Positions 6 to 32,794 of a stretch of DNA of 64,000 nucleotides are shown in pieces. Under the pieces are notes generated by a model. It searched no databases and was not told where the DNA came from. It saw only the letters and a list, made by a program, of their open reading frames with translations. How positions within the stretch are numbered: the first letter of the stretch is position 1; each line of letters starts with the position of its first letter. Both the position numbers and the translations under genes were made by a program. The stretch covers positions 7,375-71,374 of the forward strand of contig JAIKWS010000085.1 in assembly GCA_024684515.1 (NCBI GenBank), read 5' to 3'. The DNA is from Prevotella sp. Lineage in GTDB: Bacteria; Bacteroidota; Bacteroidia; Bacteroidales; Bacteroidaceae.

Positions 6-1088
6 TTAATCTGCCGTCAGCTCGATGGTGGGGTTATCGAGGTCATAGCTGCCTAACTGATAGAGATAGGTGGGCTGGATGAGGGCATTGATGGTAATCT
101 TCTGTCCCGACTCCAATGAGACATCGAGCGTCCAGCTGTTCTTGGCCTGACAGTTCTCTCTGATGAGATGACCATACCGGTCGTAAACGTCATATACCGT
201 GGTGAGTATGACGGTACGTGGCTCACCCGATTTTAGCGGAGTGAAGAAGACTGGTATCTCCGTCACCTCAGGAGATACGGCTATCTGCACTTCAGCATTG
301 TCTTCCAGCAGGTCAATGTCTGCCTCAGAAGTGGAGAAGGGCTCGAAACTGATGGTGGAATAGGGAGACTCATTCTTGATAATGGCCTGGGTGGTACCTT
401 TCTCAGTGGTCATCACCACCCTCTTCACCTTGATCGTGCGCAGCTTGGCATAGTCGGTGTGAACAGAGAAGTTCAGGGCCACCTCGGCATAGATATGTTC
501 CATTAGCACGTACATGTAATTATCGCCCTCGGTGACCTCGTAGCTGAAACTGCCAGGAGTGACAACTACCGATGTATTAGTAATGTCGAAGCCATCAGGA
601 GTAGCTTCCTTTGCCACCCCTACGACCACACAGACATCCTGTGCACTGACCGTGTTCAGTCCGCTGAGTGTCAGTGTGGCTCCAGCTGGGTAGTCAGCAG
701 AGGTGATGGTTGCCGTGGCAGCTTCCTGCGGCATATAGCCATACACATAATATGTCTGAGCCGATACGATGGCTGTTCCCATCCAATCGCAGTCATGCTG
801 CCAGTTGAAGAATGGGGTGACGATTTTACTGCTTCCGCTGTTGCCATCGGCAGGCGAGAAGAAGAGCTTGATGATACCTGGGCTGCTGATACCTTTTACA
901 TACGCACTGTATCCCTCTGCCATGCCACGTGTGTCATGCTGCACCGATGTCCTGACCGAAGTACCCAGATAGATGGTAGCCATGGCCTTGTCATCGCCCT
1001 CCTCTCCGCTGTCGTTCTGACAGCCCGAGAGCAGTACGGTGGCGAAAAGCCATAGTGCGAACATCTTATATATCGTATGCTTCATCAT
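6..1088 (-). CDS. Fimbrillin-family surface lipoprotein (type V pilus accessory/tip candidate); last gene of pilus locus 1
   Basis: 360 aa. Lipoprotein signal ends in LLSGC and is followed by an acidic stretch (QNDSGEEGDD). A Thr-Arg (HDTRG) lies about 30 aa after the Cys, as at the Arg-processing site of type V pilins. There is a central EHIYAEVAL motif. It starts 13 bp downstream of the preceding pilin gene on the same strand. Confidence 0.55.
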   Translation of the reverse strand: MMKHTIYKMFALWLFATVLLSGCQNDSGEEGDDKAMATIYLGTSVRTSVQHDTRGMAEGYSAYVKGISSPGIIKLFFSPADGNSGSSKIVTPFFNWQHDCDWMGTAIVSAQTYYVYGYMPQEAATATITSADYPAGATLTLSGLNTVSAQDVCVVVGVAKEATPDGFDITNTSVVVTPGSFSYEVTEGDNYMYVLMEHIYAEVALNFSVHTDYAKLRTIKVKRVVMTTEKGTTQAIIKNESPYSTISFEPFSTSEADIDLLEDNAEVQIAVSPEVTEIPVFFTPLKSGEPRTVILTTVYDVYDRYGHLIRENCQAKNSWTLDVSLESGQKITINALIQPTYLYQLGSYDLDNPTIELTAD

Positions 1089-1101
1089 ATCGTTTCTTTC
1101 A

Positions 1102-2967
1102 TTACCAGTTATACACTGGGTGATCTGTCGTTCCCTTGCTGACCCAGTCTTTCACACCCACCTGGAGTTTTATAGATATACCCGTTTCACGTGGCGGCAC
1201 CACGTTGTAGGCATTCTCCAGTGTGCTGACTGTGCCTTTGATAACGGTGGCGGCATCGCTGGCAAACACCTGCTTGGGATTGTTGATTGTTTCCGCACCT
1301 TCAATCTTTCCACATAGATAGAGCTTGCAGCCAGGAGGTACCAGTCCACCCTTGACACTGATATCTTTCGTTGAGTTGTTCTGGAACTCGAAGAAGAGGT
1401 ACACATCCTCCCCCTCTGCCGTCGGCAACACCAGGGTATGGTTGATGGAATATGGTTTTTCTGACGACCCGTCCTTCCCTCTGTTGGTGGTCAGATTGAT
1501 TGTTGCGTTCATCGTATTGTCATAGAGTGTATAGGTATCGGTGCCAGCAGGTGAGAAGCTGAAGTCAACAGCTTTCTGTCCGCTGACGAGGATGCCCGTC
1601 AGCTGCAGGTCGCTCATCTGCACGGTCTCGCCCACATCGTCAGTAAGTGTTTCTGCATCAGCATCCAAGGCGTTGACCCCCCAGAGAATGACATCAAGGC
1701 GGCTGACAGCATACTGCACAGGTTTTATGAGTGCTATGGAATGGACATTCTCACTGACCGGATTGGTTGTGTATTGAGCCAGGACAGCAGACCAGTCGCT
1801 GGTGTTATCATTGTAGTATTCAGACTGTGTGCTTTCGCTCACCATAACCTTGGAATTAACATAGTAGTAGAGGGGTACGGGATAGGCGTAGCGATTGAGG
1901 GGCACCTGTGTGAGGTTGTCTTTATTACCAACGATACCGATATTATCTATGGAGCCATCGAGGACAGGATTATATTTTTTATTAGTGCCATCCCACTTCA
2001 GCGTGGCAGCGCCGTCGGGCAGGCCAAGAGAGGCTGGATAGTCAATGAACTTGGTACTGGAATAATCTGGATTCCATGATAGCGCATGGTTAGTTCCTTC
2101 TGTGAGCACATCGGTAGCTGCCGAGCCTATCTTCATGTTGGCTATGATCTTTTCTTTGATTGTCACGAGATCGCCTGTCAGTTCCGTCAGCGTCAGCAGC
2201 TTACTATAGAGATTCTGCAGGACTGCCAGCACATTGGGACTGGAGCCTACAGTCAGGGAGGTCATCTTTGCATAGAGAATACCCAAAGTAGTATTTTCAC
2301 CTTGTGCTGACCAATTTTCCGTATTACAAATACCGGTCACATAGTCTGCCATCGCCGTGGCAGCAGCGGGGGCAACAGCATCAGAACCATAGAACGTTTC
2401 TGGTGAGAAGCCAATGCCACTGGGAGCGCCTGCGTCAAGCCCTGTGATGGTGAAGCTGCCATTCAACTGTTTTTTCTTCATCGCCTTCTCGTCATCCGAG
2501 AGAGACTCAATGCCGGTTGGCGTTGCATCTGTTGCCTTGCCATAGAAGAGGAAGGCATTGGTTGTATTGGGTACTGTCAGCCCCTGGTAGAGCTGGGAGT
2601 TGCTTGCACTATTGAGCGTTGAGATGGTATTGGCAGTGGTCACTGTGGGAATGCCCATGGCAGGCAGTTCCACTTTGGCAGCGAGGGGGCTATGGCTACT
2701 TCCTACAGCATCAGCATCACTTATATTAAACGGTATCATCACGATATCCTGGATGCCACGGAAGACGGGTGATGTCTGTCCCTGTACGATAGCCTCCGTC
2801 ATACGTGTGGTCGTGCCGCCATCACCGGTGCTGGTACCGACGGCCAGGGCCAGCTCGACAAGCTGACTGCCCGTTGCAGGGCTGTCAGTTGTCTGCTGTT
2901 CCTCACTGCAGCCTGCCATGAGCAGGACTGCTGTCAGCAGCGTCATGATACCATTACCATATCTCAT
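1102..2967 (-). CDS. Mfa1/FimA-like type V pilin paralog (large, 621 aa)
   Basis: Lipobox MAGC plus acidic SEEQQ. Shares with the four upstream paralogs TTTRM...FRGIQDIVMIPF, VQYAVSRLDV and PPGCKLYLCGKI. The C-terminal strand-like motif GISIKLQVGVKDW is more divergent than in the others. Confidence 0.6.
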   Translation of the reverse strand: MRYGNGIMTLLTAVLLMAGCSEEQQTTDSPATGSQLVELALAVGTSTGDGGTTTRMTEAIVQGQTSPVFRGIQDIVMIPFNISDADAVGSSHSPLAAKVELPAMGIPTVTTANTISTLNSASNSQLYQGLTVPNTTNAFLFYGKATDATPTGIESLSDDEKAMKKKQLNGSFTITGLDAGAPSGIGFSPETFYGSDAVAPAAATAMADYVTGICNTENWSAQGENTTLGILYAKMTSLTVGSSPNVLAVLQNLYSKLLTLTELTGDLVTIKEKIIANMKIGSAATDVLTEGTNHALSWNPDYSSTKFIDYPASLGLPDGAATLKWDGTNKKYNPVLDGSIDNIGIVGNKDNLTQVPLNRYAYPVPLYYYVNSKVMVSESTQSEYYNDNTSDWSAVLAQYTTNPVSENVHSIALIKPVQYAVSRLDVILWGVNALDADAETLTDDVGETVQMSDLQLTGILVSGQKAVDFSFSPAGTDTYTLYDNTMNATINLTTNRGKDGSSEKPYSINHTLVLPTAEGEDVYLFFEFQNNSTKDISVKGGLVPPGCKLYLCGKIEGAETINNPKQVFASDAATVIKGTVSTLENAYNVVPPRETGISIKLQVGVKDWVSKGTTDHPVYNW

Positions 2968-3043
2968 GCTTTTCGCTCTTTTTTTTCATCTATTCCTTAC
3001 GCGCGTACATTATATTATATATGGCGCAGGAGATACTGTGTTG

Positions 3044-5095
3044 TCAGATCTGTGGATTCAGGTGCAGTCCGTTCTCCCAGTGCAGGTTCACACTCGTTCC
3101 GAACTCCAGTCCTGGTGAGTCGAGGTCGGGCACGCCATTGGTACCTGTTCCAGGTCCATCGGGGATGGGGTCTACGGTATCATCATCTGGGTCGATGGGG
3201 TAGTCAATCACTCCGTCGCCATCGGTATCCCATCCTGGCGTGTCGGGATTGTCAGGATCGACGATGATCACGTCTGGATTGCCGTCACCATCATAGTCGT
3301 ATGGATCAGGGTCACCATCGCCATCAGTATCCACAGCATCGGGAATACCATCGCCATCGGTATCGATATACTTGTCGGGTGTGCCGTCACCATCGCGGTC
3401 CAGATCAGGCTCACCATCGCCATCGAGGTCTGCATTACCACATAGCAGGGTGATGTTCACCTTGGTGGCATAGTCCTGGATGAAGATACGGTCGATGGTT
3501 CCTGCCTGATAGTTGGTCGTCGTCGTGGCGAGGGGGTCGAGTTTTGCGGTGAGGTAGAAGGTGCCACCGGCAGGAATCATGCCATCGGCACCCTGGAAGG
3601 CGGGACCATTGTTGACGAATTCAAGTGCCACATTGACAGGCACATCAGTCTTGGTCTCCAGGCCAAGTGTATAGTTCTCGCCATCAGAGGTCTTGCCAGG
3701 AAGGGCAGTAACATCACCGTTTATCTCGCGGTCGTAGATGGTATGCTGTACACTGGTCATCACTGGCTTCCAGTTGTAAGCCACCTCTTTCTGTCCGCCA
3801 ATGAGCATTCCCATAAGAGTGAAGCCCTTGGTGACATCCATCTTCGCACCCTTGGAATCATAGTAGTCATTAGCCTTCATCGTGATTCTGGTGTCGAGGC
3901 GTCCTACGGCATACTGCACCTGGTTGGCCAGTGCCACGCTCTGTGTCGATGCCGATACCGACAGCTCAGAACCCTCATACACACTGTTGATGACCTCGCT
4001 CCATTTCTCCTTGGCCTCATATTCGCCCGACTTCACCTCGTTAGAGGCCCTGAGGGGACTGTTCACCTGATAGTAGAGGCTGGCAGGATAGACATACTCG
4101 CTGAGCTGCTTGACCTCCATGTGCTTGCCATATTCGCTGGCAGCAGCCACGAACTGGGTGCCGTCCCATGTCACCTTGCCGGCACCTACGGGCAGGTTAA
4201 GACCAGCGGGATAGCCCTGATACTTGTCGCTGAGTGTGATGGACGAAGAATATCCCACGGGACCTGCTGCGCAGGCATCCTTGATGACGTTGCAGATAGC
4301 CTGTGCCACGTCAGCATCCACCTGAATGGAGGCTGCCAGTGGCGACAATGCTGAATAGAGCTCCCCCAGTGCTGCCTGTACGGCTGTTGACGATCCTGCC
4401 GTGAGTGTGATGAAGAGGTCGAAGTTCTTCTTCAGCATCTCGTTGGTGCTGGTCGACCATCCTGGTACCGAGGCCACGCTGTTGAGCAGGTCGATGAGTG
4501 CCAGTCCGACGGTGCTACCGCCACATGGCGTATCATCAGTGCAGATCGACTCGAGACTGAAACGGATGTCATTCACGGTCTTGAACTGGTTGATGTCGAG
4601 ACCCGTGTGTGTGATATAGCCATATCTGAACTTATCTGCGGGAGTGGTAATCACCTCATCTGCGCTGTTGTCGACAGCCTTGGCATATAAGAGGAAGTTC
4701 GTCGTGCCAATGGGTATGAACTGATCGTTGTAGACATAGAAATTGGTCTGCTCAGGATCTGCCAGGCCAGCACGTGAGATGGCAGACAGCCGGATGATAG
4801 AGCCCAGTGCTGTCGATGTGGTTGTGACATCATCATCGAAGGAATAGAGATGGATATTATCCATGCCTCTGAAGGAAGCCACGGTCTCATCATACTGCAC
4901 ATTGTCTGCGCTCATACGTGTTTTCTTTGCACCCACGATGTCTTTTGGCAGCGAGATGGCAAACTGTGTCTTGGCCACCTTGGCGCCAGTCACAGGATCA
5001 ACGTTTATGATGTCCTCGTTTTCAGAACATCCGCTAAACGTTACAAGAGCTGTCGCCACAGTGGCAAGCAAGCTGATTCTAGTCATTGTTTTCAT
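3044..5095 (-). CDS. Mfa1/FimA-like type V pilin paralog with thrombospondin type-3-like Ca-binding repeats (683 aa)
   Basis: Lipobox FSGC plus acidic SENED. Motifs KKTRM...FRGMDNIHLYSF, VQYAVGRLDTRITM and IPAGGTFYLTAKLDP, then about 84 aa of DxDxDGxPD repeats. C-terminal motif LEFGTSVNLHWENG. Closest paralog is 5132-7210. Confidence 0.7.
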   Translation of the reverse strand: MKTMTRISLLATVATALVTFSGCSENEDIINVDPVTGAKVAKTQFAISLPKDIVGAKKTRMSADNVQYDETVASFRGMDNIHLYSFDDDVTTTSTALGSIIRLSAISRAGLADPEQTNFYVYNDQFIPIGTTNFLLYAKAVDNSADEVITTPADKFRYGYITHTGLDINQFKTVNDIRFSLESICTDDTPCGGSTVGLALIDLLNSVASVPGWSTSTNEMLKKNFDLFITLTAGSSTAVQAALGELYSALSPLAASIQVDADVAQAICNVIKDACAAGPVGYSSSITLSDKYQGYPAGLNLPVGAGKVTWDGTQFVAAASEYGKHMEVKQLSEYVYPASLYYQVNSPLRASNEVKSGEYEAKEKWSEVINSVYEGSELSVSASTQSVALANQVQYAVGRLDTRITMKANDYYDSKGAKMDVTKGFTLMGMLIGGQKEVAYNWKPVMTSVQHTIYDREINGDVTALPGKTSDGENYTLGLETKTDVPVNVALEFVNNGPAFQGADGMIPAGGTFYLTAKLDPLATTTTNYQAGTIDRIFIQDYATKVNITLLCGNADLDGDGEPDLDRDGDGTPDKYIDTDGDGIPDAVDTDGDGDPDPYDYDGDGNPDVIIVDPDNPDTPGWDTDGDGVIDYPIDPDDDTVDPIPDGPGTGTNGVPDLDSPGLEFGTSVNLHWENGLHLNPQI
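3179..3430 (-). repeat. Coding segment for about six thrombospondin type-3-like (DxDxDGxxDxxD) repeats
   Basis: Translation is DLDGDGEPDLDRDGDGTPDKYIDTDGDGIPDAVDTDGDGDPDPYDYDGDGNPDVIIVDPDNPDTPGWDTDGDGVIDYPIDPDDD. It lies 44 aa before the C-terminus. Confidence 0.75.
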
Positions 5096-5131
5096 ATCTC
5101 GGAACTATTTTTATTATATTCGTTTACGTTT

Positions 5132-7210
5132 TCAGAATACTGGGTTGAAGACGATGCCTCTCTTCCAGCTGAGATCCACGCTAAGCCCTAGCTCGCGGTA
5201 TTTCACATCGCTGATGGCCGGCAGGCCATAGGTGGCCGTGGCCAGTCCCTCGTTGCGGCTAGGTGTGTCAGGATAGCTGCCATCGCCATTGGTGGCTATT
5301 GGCAGGTCGCCCACGCCATCACCATCGGTATCCCATGCCGGCACGCCACTGCCATCGGTCACAATCCTGTCCATCAGACCGTCGCCATCGATGTCATAGT
5401 CATCAGGCTGCCCGTCGCCATTCGTATCGACACCTGTGGGCAGACCATTGCTGTCCTTGAGGTACACATCGGGTATGCCATCGTCATTGTCATCACGGTC
5501 AGGCTTACCGTCGCCATCCAGATCGCTATAGCCATTGAGGATGGTCACGGTGAGCTTCGTGGCATAGTCCTGCTTGAAGATACAGTCTAGCGACCCACCC
5601 TTGTAGTTGGTGGCTGCCCGCGGGTCCAGCTCTGCCACGAGGTAGAAGGTGCCGCCAGCGGGTATGGTGCCATCAGCACCCAGGAAGTCATTACCGTTGT
5701 TGACCAGTTCCAGTGCCATATAGGTAGTGGCATCCGATGGTGTCTCCAGACCCAGGGTATAGTTGACGCCTGTGGTGACGCCAGGCCTGAGGGTATAGCT
5801 GCCTGTCAGTGCGGTATCGTAGAGGGTATAGGTGTCTGCACTGGCCACAGGACGGAAGCGATAGTCAGCCTGGCACTGGCCTCCGAAGAGCATGCCCTTC
5901 AGTGTGAAGCCATTGGTGACGTCGACCTTCTTGCCGGCAGCATCGTAGAACGTACCCTTTCTCATTGTCACCTTCGTATCGATCCTGCCCACGGCATACT
6001 GCAGCTGGTTGACCATGGCCACCGAGCGGGTGGTCTTGGACACCTTCGAGGCCGCACCCTCATAGATCTTGGTGATGACACGGCTCCATGATGTCTCGTC
6101 GGCATACTGTCCCGACTCGATAGAATCGGAAGCCACGACGGGTGTATTGGCATAGTACCACAGGGCAGCGGGATAGACATATTCATCAGTATGCTCCACG
6201 CCAAGTCCCTTGCCATAGGCCTGTCTGGCATCGATGAAGGCCGTGCCGTCCCACACACAACGTGCGGCACCCTCTGGTAGGTGTACGTCAGCAGGATAGC
6301 CCTGGTAGTCATCAGCCAGCGTCAGCCTCTTGCTGTCAGCAGCAGGTGCTGAGGCACAGGCATTGGCGATGAGTGTACGCAGGTGCTGTGCCAGGGCATA
6401 GCCATTGCTCTGCGGACTGACATCCTCCAGGTTGACATAGAGTTGCGAGAGCATCGCCTGTACGGCAAACGATGATGACGTGCGCAGGGATACGAACTGG
6501 TTATAAAGCGTGCTGATCAATCCCTCTGCCGTCGACCAACGGTCGTTGGGAGCCGGTGCGCTACACGTGGCATTGGCCAGTGTGGTGAGCAGCTGCAGCA
6601 GCCGCTGTCCCACGGCACTGCCGGCACACGACTCGTCGCTGCTGTTGATGCTCCGCAGACTGAAGCGGATATCATCAAGCACCCTACCCTGCTCTGCCGT
6701 GAGGCCACGTGCCACCAGCGAGCCATAGCGGTGCCAGTCGTCAAGGGTGGTGAGAGCCTCACCAGCATTGCGGTCGATGGCCTTCGCATAGCCAAGCAGC
6801 TGTCTGGTGCCCTCAGGCACCATCACCTCGTTATACACGTAGTAGTTCGTCTCCGGCACGTCGTTGAGTTCACTAGGCACGATAGGACCGAGATTGGAGA
6901 TGAAGGCCAGGGGAGTCGTAGCAGCATCGGGCACGGCACCAAAGGCCAGGAATGTCACATTGTCCAGTCCACGGAAAGCATCCAGGTCCTCGGTGAGCTG
7001 CACCACATCAGCCCCCTGACGGGTGGTCATGCTGTCGGAGGCTCCCACGATGGCATCGGGCATGGACAGTGCGAGCTGCACGCAGACCGTCGATGGATTG
7101 TCTGTCGTGCCGCTGCTGGTCTCATCCCCGCTGTCGGAACATGCGACGATGATGAGCATCATCGCCATCATGCTCGTCAGCCACCAATTATGATCTCTCC
7201 AGTGCTTCAC
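5132..7210 (-). CDS. Mfa1/FimA-like type V pilin paralog with thrombospondin type-3-like Ca-binding repeats (692 aa)
   Basis: Lipobox IVAC plus SDSGDE. Motifs MTTRQ...FRGLDNVTFLAF, LQYAVGRIDTKVTM and IPAGGTFYLVAELDP, then about 86 aa of DxDxDG repeats. C-terminal motif ELGLSVDLSWKRG. The true start may be an internal Met of the MKHWRDHNWWLTSMMAMM leader. Confidence 0.7.
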   Translation of the reverse strand: MKHWRDHNWWLTSMMAMMLIIVACSDSGDETSSGTTDNPSTVCVQLALSMPDAIVGASDSMTTRQGADVVQLTEDLDAFRGLDNVTFLAFGAVPDAATTPLAFISNLGPIVPSELNDVPETNYYVYNEVMVPEGTRQLLGYAKAIDRNAGEALTTLDDWHRYGSLVARGLTAEQGRVLDDIRFSLRSINSSDESCAGSAVGQRLLQLLTTLANATCSAPAPNDRWSTAEGLISTLYNQFVSLRTSSSFAVQAMLSQLYVNLEDVSPQSNGYALAQHLRTLIANACASAPAADSKRLTLADDYQGYPADVHLPEGAARCVWDGTAFIDARQAYGKGLGVEHTDEYVYPAALWYYANTPVVASDSIESGQYADETSWSRVITKIYEGAASKVSKTTRSVAMVNQLQYAVGRIDTKVTMRKGTFYDAAGKKVDVTNGFTLKGMLFGGQCQADYRFRPVASADTYTLYDTALTGSYTLRPGVTTGVNYTLGLETPSDATTYMALELVNNGNDFLGADGTIPAGGTFYLVAELDPRAATNYKGGSLDCIFKQDYATKLTVTILNGYSDLDGDGKPDRDDNDDGIPDVYLKDSNGLPTGVDTNGDGQPDDYDIDGDGLMDRIVTDGSGVPAWDTDGDGVGDLPIATNGDGSYPDTPSRNEGLATATYGLPAISDVKYRELGLSVDLSWKRGIVFNPVF
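5267..5524 (-). repeat. Coding segment for about six thrombospondin type-3-like repeats
   Basis: Translation is DLDGDGKPDRDDNDDGIPDVYLKDSNGLPTGVDTNGDGQPDDYDIDGDGLMDRIVTDGSGVPAWDTDGDGVGDLPIATNGDGSYPD. It also ends 44 aa before the C-terminus. Confidence 0.75.
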
Positions 7211-7310
7211 TTATTCTTTCTTTATTTGGTTGCCCTCATCGTCATCAGGCGAGCGGGCAGTTATTGTCTATCTTTGGTTGCGCTATATTTATTAATGAAC
7301 GCGCGAGGCA

Positions 7311-8345
7311 TCAGATGCCAGGATTAGGGCCTAGGCCCTCTCTCCAGTTGAATTCCACCGAGGTGCCTATCTCCACGTTGGGAGAGTAGACAGAGCCATC
7401 GTCTTTCAGCAGGGCATATACCACCTTGATCTGTCCTGCCGACAACGGCTCGTCGATATAGAGGGTGGTACGTGTGATAGTATTGTCGGGCATGGTCACA
7501 TTGACATACATCTGCCAGATGCTGCGCAGACGTGCCGTCTCACTATCGTCGCGGGTGTCTGTCTGTGCCTCCTCGGCAGTGTCGTAGCTTGGGAACGAGA
7601 CGGCATAGAACACCTCACGCTCCACGGGAGGTTTCGTCACCCGGTAGTCGCGCAGCACAGGGTGCTCATTATGCGTATAGACGGAGTCAGCGACATAGAA
7701 TCCGTCGGCAAAGCCACGGCAAGCCACCTGCATATCCTTATATTCCACGCCATTGGTCTTCACCACCAGGATATTGGCACAGTTCACCATGCTCAGCAGC
7801 ACTTCAAAGGTCTGGCTCTTTCCGAACTCGACATTGAGACGCTTGCGTGCCGAGAAGAGTCCGGTGCTGTGTCCATAGATGGTATCGCCTTTTTCCTGCC
7901 TAAGGTAGTAAACAGAAGGTATGTCGCCACGCGACATGTCCACCTCTTTCTCCTTGTCGATATTGGCGAGGGCCAGGTGGTTGTATTCACTCACGGGCAG
8001 CTCCAGGGTGTAGACAGCCTGCTCGGCTTCCATCTGGCGGTGCACGTAGTACGTGAGTTTATGCACATTGGTATTAAAGAACGACAGGTCGATGTCATGT
8101 GCAAACTCACTGAAGATATTCTTCAGCGAGTCCTGGAGCAGGTTGGCCACATTGTCTTCGAACCGGTTTCTCAGCTCTGTCTGCAGTTCCGTCTGCAGGT
8201 TGGTCTTCAGCCGCACCTCATATTCGATGTGGAAGTCCGACTCACAGTCTGCCGCATTGTCATCAATGGTCGAGCAGGCCGTGAATAGTGAGCCCCACAG
8301 TGTGATACAGCCCCATGCCAACAGCTTTTTCAGTAGAGAAGTCAT
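7311..8345 (-). CDS. FimB/Mfa2-like type V pilus anchor candidate (344 aa)
   Basis: Lipobox FTAC followed by STIDDNAADCE (a second Cys after an acidic run, as recalled for Mfa2/FimB-family proteins; compare 25301-26350). It has no Thr-Arg processing motif after the signal. It keeps the locus-wide C-terminal motif VEIGTSVEFNWREG. Confidence 0.5.
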   Translation of the reverse strand: MTSLLKKLLAWGCITLWGSLFTACSTIDDNAADCESDFHIEYEVRLKTNLQTELQTELRNRFEDNVANLLQDSLKNIFSEFAHDIDLSFFNTNVHKLTYYVHRQMEAEQAVYTLELPVSEYNHLALANIDKEKEVDMSRGDIPSVYYLRQEKGDTIYGHSTGLFSARKRLNVEFGKSQTFEVLLSMVNCANILVVKTNGVEYKDMQVACRGFADGFYVADSVYTHNEHPVLRDYRVTKPPVEREVFYAVSFPSYDTAEEAQTDTRDDSETARLRSIWQMYVNVTMPDNTITRTTLYIDEPLSAGQIKVVYALLKDDGSVYSPNVEIGTSVEFNWREGLGPNPGI

Positions 8346-8369
8346 AACCGATTCTTTTTTTTAAAATCC

Positions 8370-8392
8370 CCCGCACCCGCAAGGAGTGCGGG
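8370..8392 (-). terminator. Intra-operon hairpin (possible attenuator) between the second stalk-like pilin gene and the anchor gene
   Basis: 7-bp GC-rich stem CCCGCAC/GTGCGGG with a 9-nt loop. On the transcribed (minus) strand it is followed by GGAUUUUAAAAAAAAG. The U tract is short. Confidence 0.35.
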
Positions 8393-8428
8393 AGAATATG
8401 CTTATTGATGAGTGATACGATACACGGA

Positions 8429-10315
8429 TTAGAAGGTATGATTGAAGGTGATACCCTCCTTCCAGGAAAGGTCAACCGAGAAGCCAAGTTCTATTTCTGG
8501 TGTACGCAGGTCTGGAATGGTGTTGTAGGCAGTACCCAGCCCCTTAGGAGCATCTATGAAGCCATCACCATCATTATCATTGGCTGAAGAAAGGTAGTCT
8601 CCTGCACCAATAGTAAAGTTGGCAATAGTCATGAAATCCTGCATGAAGACACGATTTCCAGTATTGGCAGATCCTGATACGGAGCCAGACACGTCATTTT
8701 TGGGATCAAGCTGTGCTACCATATAGAACTTACAACCAGCGGGAACGACTCCTGTTGCACCTTCAAAATCAGCACCAGTATTAATAAATTCCAGTACGAC
8801 ATAAACCGGCTTTTCTGCTACGGTCTCCAATGCCAAAGTATAGGTGGGACCAGCAGCGGTAGTCTTATTCAGAGCCTTTGAACCATCAATCACATTGTCA
8901 TAGATGATATAGGAACCCTCGGTAGCCGGCTCAAATTTGTAATCCACCTTGTTTTGTCCGCCAATCAGGACACCCGTCAAAGTATATCCTGCAGCAGGAA
9001 TGGCCACTTCCTCACCCCTACGGTCGTAATACTTCTCGGCATCCATCTTGGCTACGGTAACATCCAGACGACCTACTGCATACTGTATCTGGTCTTTGAT
9101 AGCCACAGAACGTGTCACACTCGATACAGATGTCTTATCATAACCTGCCAGGATTGTAGCCCAAGCATTGTCATTATTATAAAGAGCAGCCTTTGAGACA
9201 TCTGCTGTCATGATTTCGCTATTGCCATAATACCACAGATTGGCAGGATAGACATAATTGGCAGCTTTTGTATTATTGCGGCCAGTATCTCCATCATAAT
9301 CGACAGTAGCAACAGCAGGAGTAGCATTAGACCAAGTCAGATAGGCAGCTCCGTCAGGCAGATTAACCTTACCGGGCCAATAAGTCTCAGAACTGTTACC
9401 GATGGCAGCAGTGAAAGTCAATGTCCCATCTGGTGTTGCCGGTGCACTTGCATAAGTACTATTGGTAATAGCTGCTGCGATAGCTTGTGAGACAGCATCT
9501 GTATTCTTGTAAACAGACTTATACAAATCCACGACGGCAGCCTGTACATCCAAGGATGAGCCTGTCGTCAGCCTGATGAAATTGGTGTATAGCTCACCTA
9601 AGCCGGCATTATACCATGCCTTATTGGCTTCCGTATTGTTAGCGGAGTTAGCGCAGTCTGCCCAATGTGTGGCAGCAGCAATGGATGTTACATAGGCTGC
9701 CAAAGCATCAGCCACATCATCCTGATAGGTTGATGGATTCCAGATCTTCACTGGTGAGAATGCGATCGTGCCTATTTCTGCATCATCCGTAATGCCAGGA
9801 CTCGTAACAGATGTTGTTACGTTCAGCCCACCCTCGGCAAACGTCGCAGTAGTCGCGGTTTGTTTTGCACGTCCGTAGAACAGGAAGCCTGAGGTTCCTA
9901 CAGGAATAGTCACATCATTATACAGCACAGCATTACTGGTAGTCAGAAGTGATGCTTTGGGAATGCTATTAGAAACTTCCGTGACTGAAGGCATGGTCAT
10001 GTTTTTAAATATAATGTTGCTACCCAGACGAGCTGTCCTGTCAGTAGGACTGGCATAGGGAATTAGCGTGATGCTGTCGATGCCACGGAAAGAAGCGATA
10101 GTCTGAGCATACTGTACTGTAGCAGCAGACTGGCGGGTAGTATTATTATTTACCACACCGTCCGTAAGAGCTATGGTGAGTTGCGTTTTCACGTTCTCTC
10201 CATCATAAGTGGGGTTTACATCCGCCACCTCATCTTCCGAGGAGCAAGCGGAGAAACCTACTGCACCAACGAGTGCTATTGCACTCAGAAAGGCATACTT
10301 GAACTTCTTTTTCAT
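8429..10315 (-). CDS. Mfa1/FimA-like type V pilin paralog (628 aa), stalk candidate
   Basis: Lipobox FSAC plus SSEDE. Motifs NTTRQ...FRGIDSITLIPY, IQYAVGRLDVTVA and VPAGCKFYMVAQLDP. C-terminal motif IELGFSVDLSWKEG. Visibly more AT-rich than the downstream paralogs. Confidence 0.7.
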   Translation of the reverse strand: MKKKFKYAFLSAIALVGAVGFSACSSEDEVADVNPTYDGENVKTQLTIALTDGVVNNNTTRQSAATVQYAQTIASFRGIDSITLIPYASPTDRTARLGSNIIFKNMTMPSVTEVSNSIPKASLLTTSNAVLYNDVTIPVGTSGFLFYGRAKQTATTATFAEGGLNVTTSVTSPGITDDAEIGTIAFSPVKIWNPSTYQDDVADALAAYVTSIAAATHWADCANSANNTEANKAWYNAGLGELYTNFIRLTTGSSLDVQAAVVDLYKSVYKNTDAVSQAIAAAITNSTYASAPATPDGTLTFTAAIGNSSETYWPGKVNLPDGAAYLTWSNATPAVATVDYDGDTGRNNTKAANYVYPANLWYYGNSEIMTADVSKAALYNNDNAWATILAGYDKTSVSSVTRSVAIKDQIQYAVGRLDVTVAKMDAEKYYDRRGEEVAIPAAGYTLTGVLIGGQNKVDYKFEPATEGSYIIYDNVIDGSKALNKTTAAGPTYTLALETVAEKPVYVVLEFINTGADFEGATGVVPAGCKFYMVAQLDPKNDVSGSVSGSANTGNRVFMQDFMTIANFTIGAGDYLSSANDNDGDGFIDAPKGLGTAYNTIPDLRTPEIELGFSVDLSWKEGITFNHTF

Positions 10316-10384
10316 AAGTTTCTCAATTTTTATTTGTTATTACTTTTTTATTACTTAACTATAGTGCTTTTTTTCTTCATTACA

Positions 10385-12292
10385 TCATTCTATGGCAATG
10401 GTTTGTGTTATCCCCTGTTGCCATGACAGATCCACAGAGAGTCCCAGCTCCAGCTGCGGCATGCGCAGGTCTGGCAGGGTGTTATAGGCATTCTTCAGAC
10501 TGCCAACACTGAGGGTGACAGTTGTCACATAGTCGCGTACAAAAGCCTTCTTGATAAGCGTTTCTGTACCCGTGTACTTTGCTGTCGTGTTCGCCCAGGG
10601 GTCGAGTTTACCAATCAGATAGAACTTGCAGCCAGGAGGAATCAGGTGATAGACCTTGCCTGTTAGTTCCGCTGCGGTACTGTAGCCACTGATGGTCTCT
10701 GTTGAATTATTCTGAAACTCCACTGCGATATATACATCGCCATCGGTATTGCCTGTACCTTCAACATCATCGATGGTCTCAAAGCAAAGCGTGTGGTTAG
10801 TCACAGTATTTCCTTTCTGCAGATACATACCCGATGGGATGTCGCAGTCGTAGATGGTCTTACCACCTGCCGCTGCCGGTATGAACTGCCAGTCTACCGT
10901 CTGATTCTGGTTGCCGACGAGGACTCCCGTCACGGGGAACAGATGGCTGGTGTTTGTCGAACTGACATTGAAGGAGACACTTTCGTTGTCAAGAAGAGCA
11001 TCTGTACTTGGCAGGACTTTTACGTCTAGTCGTCCTACGGCATAGTTGATGGGATTGACGAGGACCACGGACTTCGTTGCCGTGGTAATGATATTGCCAT
11101 TCGTGTAGAGGTCAAGGACGTCAGACCACTTTGACTTTGAACCATAGTTGCTCGCCTGCTTGGCATTCGACGTGCTGATGGTCGTATTACCGAAATAGTA
11201 GAGCGGGGCAGGATAGACATAGTCCGTGGCATCGCTGACCGTGAACTTACTTCCCATGTTGGTAGTATTCCACTGCGTTTCGAAGGCAGAAGAGGTTGCA
11301 TTCCACTCGATGCTTGCCGCACCATCAGGCAATCCGATGTTGGCAGGATAGCCGCTGATGGCATCCGTAAAGGTCAGCGTTCCTGTGGGATTATTTTCCG
11401 AATCTTTTCCTGCAGAGGCATAAGTTACATCGGTGATCGCTGTGACAATAGCCTGAGAAACAGCATCCGTCAGCCTATACACATTGACATACAACTGCTG
11501 CACAGCAGCCTGGATGTTTGCCGAGGAGCCAGAGGTGATGAGCAGGAATTTATCGTAAAGCAATTTCAGATTGCCAGTAGAACTGCTCCAGCCACTGGCC
11601 TTTGCGATATTCGTGAGATAAGTATTGATGGCTGCAGCCTTGGTATCACCAGACTGAGTAGTCTTTCCACCTGTTTCATCGGTGGCAATAGGAACGTGAG
11701 AGAAACTGATTCCGCTCAGACTTTCACCGGTAAGACCGCTTTCTGCGAGAGCTCCGTTGATATGGTTTATGTAAATGTTGTCTGTTGCTGTGCCATCAGC
11801 CTGTGGGGTTGCCGCACCATAGAACAGGAAGGCATTGGTACCCATCTGGATATCGACGTCAGCATAGGTCTGTGCATGGTCTGCCGTGGAATTAAGGGCT
11901 GTTGACGCTGCTGCTACAGTATTTGCAATAGAAATAGTAGGTTTTGCACTAGCCACTGGCAGCACGAGGTTCGCGCCATTGCGGGTGGCATTCTCCGTGC
12001 CTACCACATTGCCATCAGTGGTAAGGAATGGTATCAGCTTCACACCGCTGATGCCACGAAACGATTCCACCGTCTGTGCTGACTGCACAGTGGCGTCCGA
12101 CTGACGGGTAACGGATTTGCCGGCATTCGAATTACTGAACGACAGGCTGATCTGTGCCTTGATCACCCCTGTCCGTCCTGACACGACCAGATCGTTATCG
12201 TAATCACTGCAGGCAACGACAAAAAGTGTCAGCACCGGGATAAGAAGGCAGGCCAAAGAACCTTTGAGCATTATTTTGTTCATTCTATTCAT
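10385..12292 (-). CDS. Mfa1/FimA-like type V pilin paralog (635 aa), first gene of the pilin block
   Basis: Lipobox VVAC plus SDYDND. Motifs SVTRQ...FRGISGVKLIPF, INYAVGRLDVKV and IPPGCKFYLIGKLDP. C-terminal motif LELGLSVDLSWQQG. Confidence 0.7.
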   Translation of the reverse strand: MNRMNKIMLKGSLACLLIPVLTLFVVACSDYDNDLVVSGRTGVIKAQISLSFSNSNAGKSVTRQSDATVQSAQTVESFRGISGVKLIPFLTTDGNVVGTENATRNGANLVLPVASAKPTISIANTVAAASTALNSTADHAQTYADVDIQMGTNAFLFYGAATPQADGTATDNIYINHINGALAESGLTGESLSGISFSHVPIATDETGGKTTQSGDTKAAAINTYLTNIAKASGWSSSTGNLKLLYDKFLLITSGSSANIQAAVQQLYVNVYRLTDAVSQAIVTAITDVTYASAGKDSENNPTGTLTFTDAISGYPANIGLPDGAASIEWNATSSAFETQWNTTNMGSKFTVSDATDYVYPAPLYYFGNTTISTSNAKQASNYGSKSKWSDVLDLYTNGNIITTATKSVVLVNPINYAVGRLDVKVLPSTDALLDNESVSFNVSSTNTSHLFPVTGVLVGNQNQTVDWQFIPAAAGGKTIYDCDIPSGMYLQKGNTVTNHTLCFETIDDVEGTGNTDGDVYIAVEFQNNSTETISGYSTAAELTGKVYHLIPPGCKFYLIGKLDPWANTTAKYTGTETLIKKAFVRDYVTTVTLSVGSLKNAYNTLPDLRMPQLELGLSVDLSWQQGITQTIAIE

Positions 12293-12810: not shown

Positions 12811-12915
12811 GCACAACACCTCATACAATCGCCGGAAATGCCCTGACACAGGATGTTTCAGACCTGGTGGGTGTTGGCCAAACACCCCATAAACACCTCA
12901 TAAACACCTCATACA
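12811..12915. repeat. Left arm of a ~105-bp imperfect inverted repeat
   Basis: Hand alignment to the reverse complement of 13333-13437 gives roughly 85% identity. The core is GAAATGCCCTG..CAGG..TTTCAG.CCTGGTGGGTGTTG.CCAAACACC followed by ACACCTCATAA-type units. Confidence 0.7.
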
Positions 12916-13028
12916 ACACCTCATAAACACCCCATAAACACCTCATACAACACCTCATAAACACCTCATACAACACCTCATAAACACCTCGTTGGCACCT
13001 CGTTGGCACTTCACAAAACACCTCGTAA
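12882..13028. repeat. Tandem array of ~13 units of 11-12 nt (ACACCTCATAA / ACACCTCATACA and variants)
   Basis: Read directly from the sequence. The units are ACACCCCATAA, ACACCTCATAA and ACACCTCATACA in alternating 11/12-nt steps, degenerating to CACCTCGTTGG at the right end. Three further units occur in inverted orientation at 13333-13372. Confidence 0.9.
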
Positions 13029-13332
13029 ACATATTACCAAAGTCACAAAAGTTACCAATTGAAACAATAAAAGATATTTACATAAGAAAAACTGTCTCCC
13101 ATCCTGTTTTTTCTCCCTAGTTAGGAAAAAATATTTCTCTCGCCTAGAAAATAGTTTTTCGTAACGAAAGAAGAAAAAACGCATCATATGAAGCAACGAA
13201 AATATTTTACAAATGAAACAAATCAAGAGATCTTTAGAATTAAATTACTTTACAAAACGAAAATAACGCAAGAACCTGTCTTTTAACGTCAATAGTTAAT
13301 GAATCATAAAATAACGGCCATAAAGGCCTTTT

Positions 13333-13437
13333 TCATGAGGTGTTATATGAGGTGTTTACGAGGTGTTTGGGCAACACCCACCAGGCCTGAAACGCCCTGT
13401 AGCAGGGCATTTCGAGGCAATTCGTATGAGATGTTGC
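13333..13437. repeat. Right arm of the ~105-bp imperfect inverted repeat
   Basis: Its reverse complement aligns with 12811-12915. It contains an internal hairpin GCCCTG-tag-CAGGGC. Confidence 0.7.
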
Positions 13438-13671: not shown

Positions 13672-14784
13672 CTACCACGGGTTCCTCACCCATGTATTGA
13701 CCGCCTGTCCCATGAAGCGTTTGAAGGCATTGCTGAAGGTGCGATAGCTTCGGAAGCCACTGTCGTAGGCCAGCTGCTGGGCAGAGACAGAACCGAGCTG
13801 TGGCTGTGAGATGGCCTCGCGATAGAGACGTACGAAGTGCTCGACTCGCAAACGGTTGATATAGGCATTGTAGGTGGTGCCCTGGTCGGCTAAATACTGG
13901 CTGAGATACGTGCGATTGGTTCCTATGGCACGACAGAGCTGGTCGAGGGTGAGGTCGCTATGCAGATACAACTGACGCGATTCGCAACATTCTTCTAGCA
14001 GGCTGCCTATGCCGGTAAGGGTAGAGGGTGACATAGCGGTCCTGGCCGTGGCCAACTGTCCGTCGACATCGTCTGCGGCAAGGGTGCCGTCAGCTACCAG
14101 GCTCTGCAACGATTCCACACGCCAGAGCACGATGATGACAAGGATGACAGAAATGAGCATCGAGAGATACTCTATCCACAGGGCTCCCATATTGAACAGA
14201 TAGACGATATAGAAGAGCTGGACACCTACTATCAGCACGAGATTCTTGCCCAGCTCCTTGTTCCTGAGATCCGAGAAGTTGGCTCGCAGCCAGTGCCCAT
14301 ACTGTCGCAAGGCATAGGCCATGTAGCTAAAGAAGAATAGGAACAGCAACGTGACATAGATGCTGATCAGCCACGTGAAACTGGCATCACGCATCACAAT
14401 GCCCACGACAACGGCTATCAGCACTCCTGGAGCAACCATCAGGGCTACTGGCCATAATGGACGACGACGGTCCTGCAGCATGCGGATGAGCAACGGCAGC
14501 AAGGTGAATCCCATGAAGAGGATGTCGAGTGCCTGACCAAGGGCATTGCCCAGCACCAGGTCGTCGAACGTACATCCCAGCACCACCCACCACAGATTGC
14601 TCAGTGCGAATGTCCCCACGACACCAGCTGCCCAGTAGCGTAACTCCCTGGGAGGCTGTACCGTCATCGAAAAGGCATTGCCACGTCTGAACAGCAGGTA
14701 AAGACATACCAGCACATAGAAGACGGTAACACCCCCATAGGATGCTACGAACAAGGCATCATGAAATGCTTGCAGTTCATACAT
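13672..14784 (-). CDS. Membrane-embedded AraC-family transcriptional regulator (about 7 TM segments plus a C-terminal HTH)
   Basis: 370 aa. About seven hydrophobic segments in residues 1-235. The C-terminal tail is AraC-like: LTLDQLCRAIGTNRTYLSQYL...YINRLRVEHFVRL...AYDSGFRSYRTFSNAFKRFMG. Confidence 0.75.
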   Translation of the reverse strand: MYELQAFHDALFVASYGGVTVFYVLVCLYLLFRRGNAFSMTVQPPRELRYWAAGVVGTFALSNLWWVVLGCTFDDLVLGNALGQALDILFMGFTLLPLLIRMLQDRRRPLWPVALMVAPGVLIAVVVGIVMRDASFTWLISIYVTLLFLFFFSYMAYALRQYGHWLRANFSDLRNKELGKNLVLIVGVQLFYIVYLFNMGALWIEYLSMLISVILVIIVLWRVESLQSLVADGTLAADDVDGQLATARTAMSPSTLTGIGSLLEECCESRQLYLHSDLTLDQLCRAIGTNRTYLSQYLADQGTTYNAYINRLRVEHFVRLYREAISQPQLGSVSAQQLAYDSGFRSYRTFSNAFKRFMGQAVNTWVRNPW

Positions 14785-15214: not shown

Positions 15215-16843
15215 CTAACGGGTTATCTGTCTCAGGTTCTCACGGGCATCGTGATTGCCATTGTCAGCAGCCCTGCGGAAATAGGTGATGGCCTCGTCGT
15301 GGCGATCACAATACCAGAGTGCCACAGCTAGCGCATTCCAGCCACGAGGGTCGTCACGCACCTCGCTGAGCTTGGCAAGGGCTTCCTGATAGCGGCCTTC
15401 TGCCAGCAGCTGCGTGCCACTGTTGATGCTGGCGGCACGGGTGTCGGGCACATAGTCGTAGTAGATGCGCAGGTAGCCCGAGTTGCGCTGGTCGGGCAAC
15501 AGCTGTTCGCGGATATAGCGATAGGTGCTGCCGCCATCGATGGTGCGCAGCCGCTGTTCGCGACGGCTCAGGTCTGCCTCGCTGTCGATGATGGCGATGG
15601 CCTGTCGCAGGGCCTGCACCTCGCTGTCGGAGTGTGTGCCAGGAGCGATGACCACATCGTTGATCTGGTCGCGAAGCTCTGTCCAAGCCTCACCGCCATT
15701 GCAGAGCTCGTAGAGGGTGTCGGGGGTAGCCACCTGCTGCTGGATATAGGCTTTCAGGGCCTCGGCTCGCTGGGCTGCCAGCTCCTCGTTGTGGGTCACG
15801 GCACCTTCTACTGAGGCCAGTCCTATAATCTGTATGCGACACACGTTGCTGGTGCTGTCAGCCAGAATCTGACGGGTGATATCTACGATACGGTCCAGCA
15901 CGCCGGCATTGTCACGATAGTCGCTGCTCAGCTCGCTCTTGTCGAGGGGGAAATGGACATAGAGGGCTCCCTTCTCCTTGCGTAGTATGCGTGTGCGGTC
16001 GTAGGGACGGTATTGTGAGATGTGTTCCAGCACGGGGTTGTCCCGCTGCAGGATGCCTGCCTGACCAGAGAAGTCGGCCACGGGATGGATGACGAAATGG
16101 GGCTTGACAGGCTCTACAGGCTCTGCAGGCTGGATGGGCACCACGGCATACTGTGGCTGTGTAGGCTGCGGGTGCAGCACCAGGTTGAGTGCCAGCTTGG
16201 GCATGAGGAAGGGTCCTGAGAAGTCGCCAACCTTCATCCCACAGCGTCCACACCGATAGCTGTCGCCCAAGGCATAGCCCACGTCGAGGCCTGCCTCAGC
16301 CTCGATGCGCAGCCAGCGGCATAGTCGCCACGAACGGCCCACGCTGGCTCCCACAGCCACCAGGTCTCCCTGTCGCCGCTCGTCCTTGACGGCACTGTAG
16401 AGGGTGCCAATGGGGAAGTCCACATCGGCCACGTTGAAATGGCTGTACACGGCATTCACACCCCAGAACCAGGAACGGTCGGCAAAGGTGGAGTCACTCC
16501 AGTGGCGCAGCTCGGGCATGATGAGCACATGCCGCCACTTGCGGCTGGTATCGTCGCTGGTGGGCCAGGGACGATAGCCTGCCGTGAGACCGATGCTCCA
16601 CCGACGGGACAGTCGCCAGTCTACTCCAAGATTGGGGGTGAGGAAGGCATCGTAGAGCAGGTTGTTGCGCACGGCAAGGGGGAAGGTATGTCCAGGCTTG
16701 ACGATGTGCGTGGAGTCGATGCGATAGCCTGGAGGTGGCAACTGCTGCTGGGCATGCGAGGCAAGACTCATGACGATGACCAGGCAGAGCGATAGGGCTA
16801 TCCTCCTGCCGGTATGGGACTTAGTAGTGGTATTTATGCTCAT
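15215..16843 (-). CDS. DUF3575-like beta-barrel / OmpA-like outer-membrane protein with a TPR-like tail; head of pilus locus 1
   Basis: Start trimmed to MSINTTT... because a -7 box falls inside the longer ORF. Signal peptide ends ...SLASHAQ. The N-terminal region is NLLYDAFLTPNLGVDWRLSRRWSIGLTAGYRPW, followed by a Pro-rich linker. The OmpA-like motif is IIGLASVEGAVTHNEELAAQRAEALKAYI. Paralog of 22398-23651. Confidence 0.65.
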   Translation of the reverse strand: MSINTTTKSHTGRRIALSLCLVIVMSLASHAQQQLPPPGYRIDSTHIVKPGHTFPLAVRNNLLYDAFLTPNLGVDWRLSRRWSIGLTAGYRPWPTSDDTSRKWRHVLIMPELRHWSDSTFADRSWFWGVNAVYSHFNVADVDFPIGTLYSAVKDERRQGDLVAVGASVGRSWRLCRWLRIEAEAGLDVGYALGDSYRCGRCGMKVGDFSGPFLMPKLALNLVLHPQPTQPQYAVVPIQPAEPVEPVKPHFVIHPVADFSGQAGILQRDNPVLEHISQYRPYDRTRILRKEKGALYVHFPLDKSELSSDYRDNAGVLDRIVDITRQILADSTSNVCRIQIIGLASVEGAVTHNEELAAQRAEALKAYIQQQVATPDTLYELCNGGEAWTELRDQINDVVIAPGTHSDSEVQALRQAIAIIDSEADLSRREQRLRTIDGGSTYRYIREQLLPDQRNSGYLRIYYDYVPDTRAASINSGTQLLAEGRYQEALAKLSEVRDDPRGWNALAVALWYCDRHDEAITYFRRAADNGNHDARENLRQITR

Positions 16844-16863
16844 GGCGGAATGATTTGAATGGA

Positions 16864-16871
16864 CAAATATA
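16864..16871 (-). promoter_or_regulatory. Candidate -7 box (TATATTTG)
   Basis: TAnnTTTG on the minus strand, 21 nt upstream of the ATG at 16843. Confidence 0.45.
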
Positions 16872-17160
16872 CTAATAATCGCAGAACAATTGACAATTCG
16901 GAAAGGAAATATAACACAAATTAACAACTCGGGGCGGAAATGGCATGGGAAGGTAGCGGACCAACGGAAGCATCACACATTATTATATATAGGAGTCGCA
17001 CCTACTTATATGCAAGAGTCACCATGCCTGTCGCAGGCATCCACGAGCAACTAACGACAAAAACGGGGATGATGCCGCTGACTTGACGCAAATTCTGCCT
17101 TCTGTCGCAACATAATGAAAAATAAAAAGGCAAAATCGGTTCTGTGTCGCAAAAAATATG

Positions 17161-23651: not shown

Positions 23652-23692
23652 ACAACAAACAATATTTTTATTTATTTAATTTTCAAACGTTT

Positions 23693-25279: not shown

Positions 25280-25300
25280 CATCTGAAACAGACTCAGATA

Positions 25301-28166: not shown

Positions 28167-28180
28167 AAACAAAGAATGCA

Positions 28181-29215: not shown

Positions 29216-29246
29216 ACAGTTTATCCCTAGAAACATCAAACAAGGA

Positions 29247-31697: not shown

Positions 31698-31710
31698 AAA
31701 AGACAGGATT

Positions 31711-32781: not shown

Positions 32782-32794
32782 AAAGAGGTAGTGA

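Follow-up and report, generated by a model that had tools for sequence, protein, structure and literature searches.

Asp-rich arrays of putative calcium loops ahead of the donor-type strands of two candidate Mfa1-like pilins in Prevotella

In Bacteroidota the chief adhesive fibres are type V pili, and what is known of their structure and mechanism comes mostly from FimA and Mfa1 of P. gingivalis. For Mfa1, a 2026 cryo-electron microscopy study describes one bound Ca2+, measured by ICP-AES, with D507, D509, N512 and E514 as ligands (PMC13655056). The four ligands belong to a Pro-rich stretch (503-539) of the C-terminal domain that separates beta13 from beta14, and Pro539 is where the donor strands beta14-betaC flip outward (PMC13655056). 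Treatment with ethylenediaminetetraacetic acid or the DDNE/A mutant left polymerisation and stability of Mfa1 intact and altered the interleukin-6 response (PMC13655056). The role of the metal-binding loop is a question that the work on Mfa1 leaves largely open. Here we analysed a window of 64,000 nucleotides from a Prevotella sp. contig (JAIKWS010000085.1), in which two adjacent genes encode candidate Mfa1-like pilins, the paralogs A and B, that carry at the equivalent place an array of about six Asp-rich units resembling calcium loops.

Paralog A (3044..5095, minus strand, 683 aa) and paralog B (5132..7210, minus strand, 692 aa counted from GTG and 679 aa in the database form) are 46% identical and stand next to each other in the leaf order of the body-only tree described below. 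An earlier, sequence-only reading of this DNA had noticed about six Asp-rich units in each of these two adjoining pilins, and the translations of 3179-3436 and 5267-5530 bear this out. The array of A (3179..3436, minus strand, residues 554-639) is NADLDGDGEPDLDRDGDGTPDKYIDTDGDGIPDAVDTDGDGDPDPYDYDGDGNPDVIIVDPDNPDTPGWDTDGDGVIDYPIDPDDD, a block of 86 aa with 32 Asp (37%) and abundant Gly and Pro, in which six DxDGDGxPD-type loops can be recognised, their clean DxDGDG units being at residues 556, 566, 578, 589, 600 and 623. In B the array (5267..5530, minus strand) is 88 aa long; five of its units are clean and one or two more are degenerate. When the insert of A was shuffled 5000 times, matches to D.[DN]G[DN]G averaged 0.10 with a maximum of 3, compared with six observed; shuffling the insert of B gave a mean of 0.5 and a maximum of 4, again compared with six. 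The order of the units in the arrays far exceeds chance or composition.

The two arrays end 44 aa from the C-terminus, as had been read from the letters, and in the primary sequence the block follows the last strand of the body and precedes the donor-type strands at the C-terminus. The ELGxSVxLxW motif, which the same reading placed immediately after the repeats, is real and conserved but starts about 24 aa further on, with a conserved GLGxAxNGIPDLxSP segment in between. In A, the last 44 aa (3047..3178, minus strand) comprise a Pro-rich tail, a hinge-like GxGTNGVPDLDSP segment and the putative donor-type strands LEFGTSVNLHW and GLHLNPQI, delimited from conserved columns, from the AlphaFold2 (AF2) model and by analogy with beta14-betaC of Mfa1. 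The open reading frame (ORF) and alignments place the corresponding strands of B (5135..5266, minus strand) at RELGLSVDLSW and GIVFNPVF. Within the motif, E664, G666, S668, L671 and W673 are invariant across the five paralogs A to E of the window.

We derived a unit consensus from 111 units of 24 array-bearing orthologues (A, B and 22 others). It has D at position 1 (90%), [DN] at 3 (100%), G at 4, [DN] at 5 (100%), G at 6 (99%), P at 8 and D at 9 (80%), followed by hydrophobic residues, and so has the acidic positions 1, 3, 5 and 9 and the Gly at 6 of a DxDxDG loop. The D-x-[DN]-G-D-G-x-x-D pattern belongs to the generic DxDxDG Ca2+-loop motif class, and at the level of the motif Ca2+ binding by the array is plausible. 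Furthermore, the units are positionally orthologous between species whose proteins share about 40% identity in the body, and the last unit, GWDTDGDGxVDIP, is near-invariant between species. The array is a real, conserved and non-random feature. The other three paralogs were said to be devoid of the segment; the 85-aa block is indeed absent from them, and units are entirely missing from C and E, but D keeps a single unit, DNDGDGFIDAP (8546..8578, minus strand), which aligns with the last and most conserved unit of A and B. A tandem-repeat search found no DNA-level tandem repeat over the arrays of A and B, which argues that the units are old and diverged and rules out recent slippage as the origin of the arrays.

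In a scan that took one genome for each GTDB species we found 69 related loci (70 loci in the counts given here), nearly all from rumen or gut Prevotella and Prevotellaceae metagenome-assembled genomes (MAGs), with a few from Hallella and Paludibacteraceae. The cultured matches (Hallella mizrahii, Prevotella lacticifex and AGR2160) have array-less genes only. These loci hold 172 ORFs of the A-E family: 131 lack the unit, 17 carry a single one and 24 carry at least two, with a maximum of seven. In a neighbour-joining tree built on body columns only, the array-bearing proteins follow one another without interruption in the leaf order, A and B side by side, and the single-unit proteins fall into two other positional groups. 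On these sequences the array is a conserved trait confined to one small rumen-type Prevotellaceae clade and present in at least 22 species; its most likely origin is that a unit already resident there was duplicated in place. The family itself is far larger: a search of a representative library with a full-length profile of 684 positions, which gauges family size and not the spread of the array, gave 1,455 clusters at 50% identity with E<=1e-3 and 824 with E<=1e-30, mostly from rumen and gut Prevotellaceae. By inspection, arrays are present in 7 of the best 150 representatives of the whole family.

Compared with the metal-binding loop of Mfa1 (PDB 5NF3, PMC13655056), the array shares an Mfa-type type V pilin as carrier, an Asp/Pro-rich composition and the slot that follows the last body strand and precedes the donor strands, just ahead of the hinge. 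The two differ in that Mfa1 has one site whereas the array has 4-7 tandem DxDGDGxPD units in 86-100 aa and is predicted to form a mini-domain of its own; in that Mfa1 is the stalk pilin whereas the carriers of the array are probably accessory; and in that Ca2+ was measured in Mfa1 but is proposed from the motif in the array. The sequence-only reading had given Mfa1 a Pro/Asp-rich region at this position, correctly, and suggested that a Ca2+ binder had replaced it; that second part is too simple, the Mfa1 region being itself a Ca2+ site (PMC13655056). Because the slot is already a known Ca2+ site in Mfa1, the novelty would lie in the expansion from one site to 4-7 within an undescribed family, where "undescribed" refers to the absence of annotation and to a literature covered in part.

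The assignment of A to E to the type V pilins draws on several lines of evidence. The lipobox Cys23 and, about 35 residues after the Cys, Thr59-Arg60 are invariant in the five paralogs, and both the lipobox and the conserved Thr-Arg are present in all 24 array-bearing orthologues. By hhalign, the A-E family profile (89 members) matches the window's Fimbrillin_C (Mfa1-like) protein (23693-25279) with a probability of 95% and E 3.7e-8, the match covering the signal peptide, the anchor strand and the Arg loop. The C-terminal donor-type motif, ELGxSVxLxW-xG, is conserved family-wide and is also found in the Mfa2-like anchor encoded in the same operon. The full-length AF2 model of A has a predicted local distance difference test score (pLDDT) of 81 and a predicted template modelling score (pTM) of 0.80, and in a Foldseek search of the PDB with this model four of the five best rows are chains of Bacteroidales type V pilins (3sy6 A/B, 4rdb and 3up6), with more pilin structures recurring within the top 25 (4gpv, 5dhm (Mfa4), 3t2l and 4h40). 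Because of the lipobox, the Arg loop, the pilin fold matches, the C-terminal strand and an operon with DUF3575 and Mfa2-like genes, the evidence points to A to E being divergent Mfa1-like type V pilins, and the pilin-like, Mfa1-type character proposed for A and B from the letters alone is upheld by the same features together with the hhalign match. None of the whole proteins A to E is matched by a Pfam family, and PDB sequence searches with protein A, with a five-paralog profile and with the array alone returned nothing relevant. All 784 homologues found are without a name or labelled "hypothetical"; they stem from MAGs of Prevotella or Bacteroidaceae, and none carries a precomputed Pfam domain. 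The locus reveals a large family of Mfa1-like pilins that escapes current domain models, and within it one conserved clade in which the single Ca2+ site of Mfa1 would have been amplified to a module of 4-7 sites.

We favour, with moderate confidence, an explanation in which A and B are divergent Mfa1-like pilins, the array is an expanded Ca2+-loop mini-domain and the proteins have an accessory role. By analogy with Mfa1, A and B would receive a lipid at the lipobox Cys, cleavage behind the conserved Arg at about residue 60 would release them, and their last 22 residues or so would enter another subunit as donor strands. The Asp-rich block would be a DxDxDG Ca2+-binding loop grown from one unit to 4-7, and its place is an excursion of the C-terminal domain that leads from the last strand of the body to the donor-strand hinge. 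Each unit would provide acidic ligands at positions 1, 3, 5 and 9 and the following hydrophobic residues would make short strands, the array folding into a compact mini-domain, stabilised by Ca2+, that docks on the C-terminal domain alongside the subunit junction. As accessory or adaptor pilins, A and B would keep groove and donor strand, as Mfa3 does, and the array would act as a Ca2+-rigidified, surface-exposed appendage, either a protease-resistant structure or an adhesive surface, constitutively loaded in the Ca2+-rich gut. In this account the sequence pattern, with its conservation and position, the fold prediction and the synteny are what the analysis shows, and we infer the Ca2+ binding, processing, polymerisation, accessory status and function of A and B; the Ca2+-stabilised appendage is the most likely role and a polymerisation switch a less likely one, since the Ca2+ of Mfa1 is dispensable for polymerisation and stability, which lowers the prior for a Ca2+ control of assembly.

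Several points weigh against this explanation. The Foldseek matches of the A model, which bear on the two transthyretin-like beta-sandwich domains of type V pilins, have E values between 1e-4 and 1e-2 and low TM-scores (0.12-0.46), and with the C-terminal domain alone E is 0.04 or worse. The low TM-scores are partly due to an alpha-helical insert of about 85 residues in the N-terminal half (roughly 190-275 of A), a feature of the A-E family that is unusual for type V pilins. No Pfam or NCBIfam pilin model reaches its threshold on A or B; the NCBIfam model fim_Mfa1_fam (NF038041) scores 27.6 bits against a cut-off of 130, over the N-terminus only. The ligand pattern of Mfa1, DxDxxNxE, differs from that of the array, and there is no detectable sequence homology between the Mfa1 loop and the array. 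The arrays of A and B mostly depart from the EF-hand pattern PS00018 and from the full 12-residue pattern of thrombospondin type 3 (TSP3) repeats. Finally, the docking of the array on the C-terminal domain is drawn from pLDDT and pTM only, and operon position is indirect evidence for the accessory status.

The position of the array allows a different function, in which it would be an intersubunit linker between body and donor strand whose length and Ca2+-dependent stiffening set the spacing or flexibility of subunits or gate assembly. Its place in the primary sequence, after the last body strand and ahead of the donor strands, agrees with such a spacer, and the equivalent slot of related Mfa2-like anchors holds a (PDPG)n spacer of about 45-75 aa, so that the slot does evolve spacers and the idea keeps some weight. 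The units, however, are individually conserved with hydrophobic strand-forming residues, unlike a low-complexity spacer, and the equivalent region of Mfa1 stays on its own C-terminal domain, where Ca2+ is dispensable for assembly and stability. The predicted structure speaks in the same direction. An AF2 model of the C-terminal domain built with a clade-enriched alignment gives the blocks covering the array a mean pLDDT of 85-93 and the Pro-rich tail after it 74-80; body and array together reach a pTM of 0.79, and the hydrophobic residues behind each loop make short strands. The only low-confidence stretch is residues 660-670, a hinge about 20 aa past the array, which is followed by a terminal strand at 674-679. 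Because the pLDDT of the array is high and low confidence is confined to 660-670, the array is predicted to be a compact mini-domain held in a fixed pose on the C-terminal domain and followed by a hinge, and not the free intersubunit linker that the sequence-only reading had imagined. We consider the spacer unlikely and keep the docked, Ca2+-stabilised mini-domain as our preferred reading.

The accessory role of A and B was judged from gene order. On the minus strand, 6-12292 is a run of seven tightly packed genes with gaps of 13-100 bp, transcribed in the order E, D, the Mfa2-like gene, B, A, C and a gene for a 360-aa lipoprotein; A to E are paralogs, B to E sharing 29-46% identity with A. 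Writing F for a gene of the A-E family, the common architecture of the related loci is [AraC] - DUF3575 - F - (F) - Mfa2-like - F - F - F - ... - 360-aa protein, with a minimal version DUF3575 - F - Mfa2-like, and the synteny of the operon with an Mfa2-type anchor is conserved in about 60 loci. Since minimal operons have a single F before the anchor, the F gene at that position must be the stalk. The array gene lies downstream of the Mfa2-like gene in 22 of the 24 cases and is the first pilin gene in none, and by this position and by analogy with mfa1-mfa5 A and B are probably accessory or adaptor pilins, more likely so than shaft pilins; a display of the array along the shaft, as first proposed, is accordingly doubtful. 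Like the Mfa3-type adaptor pilins of the mfa1-mfa2-mfa3-mfa4-mfa5 operon, A and B are encoded past the anchor gene and keep a donor strand and a cleavable N-terminal anchor strand; unlike them, they are paralogs of the candidate stalk pilin and not Mfa3 homologues, their role being read from gene order only. As the Arg loop and the donor-type C-terminus are kept, A and B could sit inside the fibre as Mfa3 does. A more specific version, to which we give a slim chance, has the array pilins as adaptors of a multi-subunit tip fibrillum, with the six-site Ca2+ module serving as a rigid joint that sets the stalk-tip geometry or as an adhesin that binds partner cells or anionic plant-wall polymers multivalently through Ca2+ bridges. 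If this were true, rumen Prevotella would have a metal-tuned type V pilus with no counterpart in the P. gingivalis models.

It seems quite improbable to us that the proteins do not polymerise and are surface lipoproteins, pilin-like in fold, whose array would mediate Ca2+-bridged binding to anionic plant polysaccharides such as pectin, or to cells. The uniformly "hypothetical" family without a Pfam model, the large helical insert atypical of pilins and the fibrolytic setting, with a GH9 cellulase in the window and relatives from rumen MAGs, would suit such lipoproteins, but the Arg loop, the donor-type C-terminus common with the anchor and the fixed DUF3575/Mfa2-like operon are hallmarks of an assembling type V pilus; moreover, adhesion and polymerisation are compatible and do not exclude each other.

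The identity of the units themselves had been given as thrombospondin type 3. This label did not survive the searches: Pfam TSP_3 (PF02412) has no match in the isolated segments of A and B at E<=10, nor in any of the 24 orthologues at E<=1. The bacterial model TSP3_bac (PF18884) reaches 13.8 bits in A (E 0.055, cut-off 25), aligning one unit with model positions 1-10 of 22 only, and has no match in the other 23 orthologues. The 12-residue DxDxDGxxDxxD pattern fits two of the six units of A and one or two of those of B. The arrays of A and B contain no Cys and no Cys/Pro half-repeat (the xCP extension), and neither thrombospondin nor COMP appeared among the PDB sequence matches of the array or the Foldseek matches of the confident model of C-terminal domain plus array, the latter being a soft negative as Foldseek is weak on irregular loops. 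TSP3 repeats (PF02412/PF18884) and the array have in common tandem Asp-rich DxDxDGxxD loops, and at a period of 11 the first Asp of the next unit takes position 12; they differ in period (10-12 in the array, 22 or more in TSP3), in the short beta-strands predicted for the array, and in its lack of a significant model match, of disulfides and half-repeats and of a structural match to thrombospondin. We therefore think there is little chance that the block is a true member of the TSP3 family, akin to the TSP3_bac repeats of OmpA-like proteins and recruited into a pilin: the partial PF18884 match and the three or four fitting units of A and B would be its traces, against which stand the differences just listed and the likely origin of the array by in-place duplication of a resident single unit.

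The remaining weak matches are also to calcium-loop families. On the isolated segments of A and B at E<=10, the sub-threshold Pfam matches are TSP3_bac, EF-hand and FG-GAP only; across the 24 orthologues they are FG-GAP_3 (14 of 24, best E 1.5e-5), FG-GAP (8) and EF-hand_5 (7), with further matches to Dockerin_1, Excalibur and TSP3_bac, all of them Ca2+-loop families. Because PF02412 never matches and the weak matches are mainly to FG-GAP and EF-hand, we read the units, from these profiles, as generic DxDxDG calcium loops and not as TSP3 repeats. The loops of FG-GAP, EF-hand and dockerin proteins have the same D-x-[DN]-G-D-G-x-x-D between hydrophobic strand residues, and these families give the weak matches across the orthologues; unlike these proteins, the arrays of A and B have no propeller blade, no EF-hand or dockerin helices and no PS00018. 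Foldseek with the model of C-terminal domain plus array found no Ca2+-repeat protein. We rejected Dockerin, FG-GAP propeller and canonical EF-hand as identities, since the helices or blades are missing, PS00018 does not fit and the scores are sub-threshold. That the block is an acidic, metal-independent and disordered decoration, a charge brush or an antigenic decoy, is extremely improbable: its extreme composition (37% Asp with abundant Gly and Pro) and a pLDDT of only 60-70 in the full-length model, which was built with a family-wide alignment, would fit, but the strict D/G register, the near-invariant GWDTDGDGxVDIP, the conserved hydrophobic positions and the pLDDT of 85-93 with the clade-enriched alignment do not.

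If the module binds Ca2+, the family would offer members with 0, 1 and 4-7 units as a natural series for probing the role of the metal-binding loop in type V pilins, and a case for a domain model that annotates such pilins in rumen and gut genomes.

With the array alone as query, a homologue search found only truncated C-termini of the A-E family and, unrelated to it, a few small secreted proteins that carry DTDGDGxPDAW arrays. Three of the latter, from outside the window (P0126, P0131 and P0132, two of them from Pseudomonadota), have mostly period-11 arrays of this type and no Pfam annotation; as they are unrelated and consist largely of the DxDGDG loop unit, the unit has been amplified independently elsewhere.

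The other members of the operon were assigned from their ORFs, alignments, synteny and the tree. Paralog E (10385..12292, minus strand, 635 aa, no unit) is the operon's first pilin gene and thereby the candidate stalk pilin; D (8429..10315, minus strand, 628 aa, a single unit) lies upstream of the anchor gene and belongs to the stalk-position clade; C (1102..2967, minus strand, 621 aa, no unit) is a downstream pilin in accessory position. The Mfa2-like anchor pilin (7311..8345, minus strand, 344 aa) is supported by conserved synteny and matches Pfam PF08842 with E 6.5e-6 and 26.4 bits, above the gathering score of 21.2; it ends in the C-terminal motif common to A to E, EIGTSVEFNWREGLGPNPGI. 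The (PDPG)n spacers of about 45-75 aa found in related anchors (L025 4998-6224, L026 9899-11161, L059 2400-3698 and L070 6943-8145) stand directly before the C-terminal donor-type strand of the anchor, in the slot equivalent to that of the DxDGDG array, and the anchor of the window has none.

The 360-aa lipoprotein (6..1088, minus strand) closes the conserved operon, lacks the ELGxSVxLxW motif and is a candidate tip protein; its gene is kept at the operon end in many related loci. Related operons (L070 16327-22061, L001 11860-13095 and equivalents) hold an extra gene for a 411-430-aa lipoprotein between the C-type pilin and the 360-aa gene, whose product ends in ...YNW like paralog C of the window. 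Beyond the 360-aa gene they also run on into a giant ORF, at least 1,952 aa long and without a Pfam match. The window has no gene for the 411-430-aa lipoprotein and ends before any giant ORF.

The operon is headed by a gene for a DUF3575 outer-membrane protein (15215..16927, minus strand; Pfam PF12099, E 2e-36, and synteny). Between it and the pilin genes lies a gene for a membrane-anchored AraC-type regulator (13672..14784, minus strand; Pfam HTH_18 / HTH_AraC), and AraC genes adjoin the operon repeatedly in other loci. Upstream of E, the intergenic region 12835-13413 contains an 11-nt unit, AAACACCTCAT, in about ten tandem copies at 12880-12990 (Tandem Repeats Finder score 181) and about three inverted copies at 13335-13368, the arms being 68 nt long, 88% complementary and 443 nt apart. 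The repeats could be a binding-site array for the adjoining AraC-type regulator or the flanks of an invertible promoter.

The DnaG of the window shares 76-82% identity with Prevotella primases, which makes the host an uncultured Prevotella in the broad sense. On the plus strand, 22398-33712 is by Pfam a second, canonical Mfa-type pilus cluster with DUF3575-OmpA, Fimbrillin_C (Mfa1-like), Mfa2, two unassigned ORFs, Mfa_like_1 (816 aa) and Mfa_like_2. It is followed at 33911-36538 (minus strand) by the gene for an 875-aa cellulase of CelD_N + GH9 type, adjoining DnaG, cardiolipin-synthase-like, LptD and MFS genes, a neighbourhood that fits a chromosomal region of a fibrolytic Prevotella.

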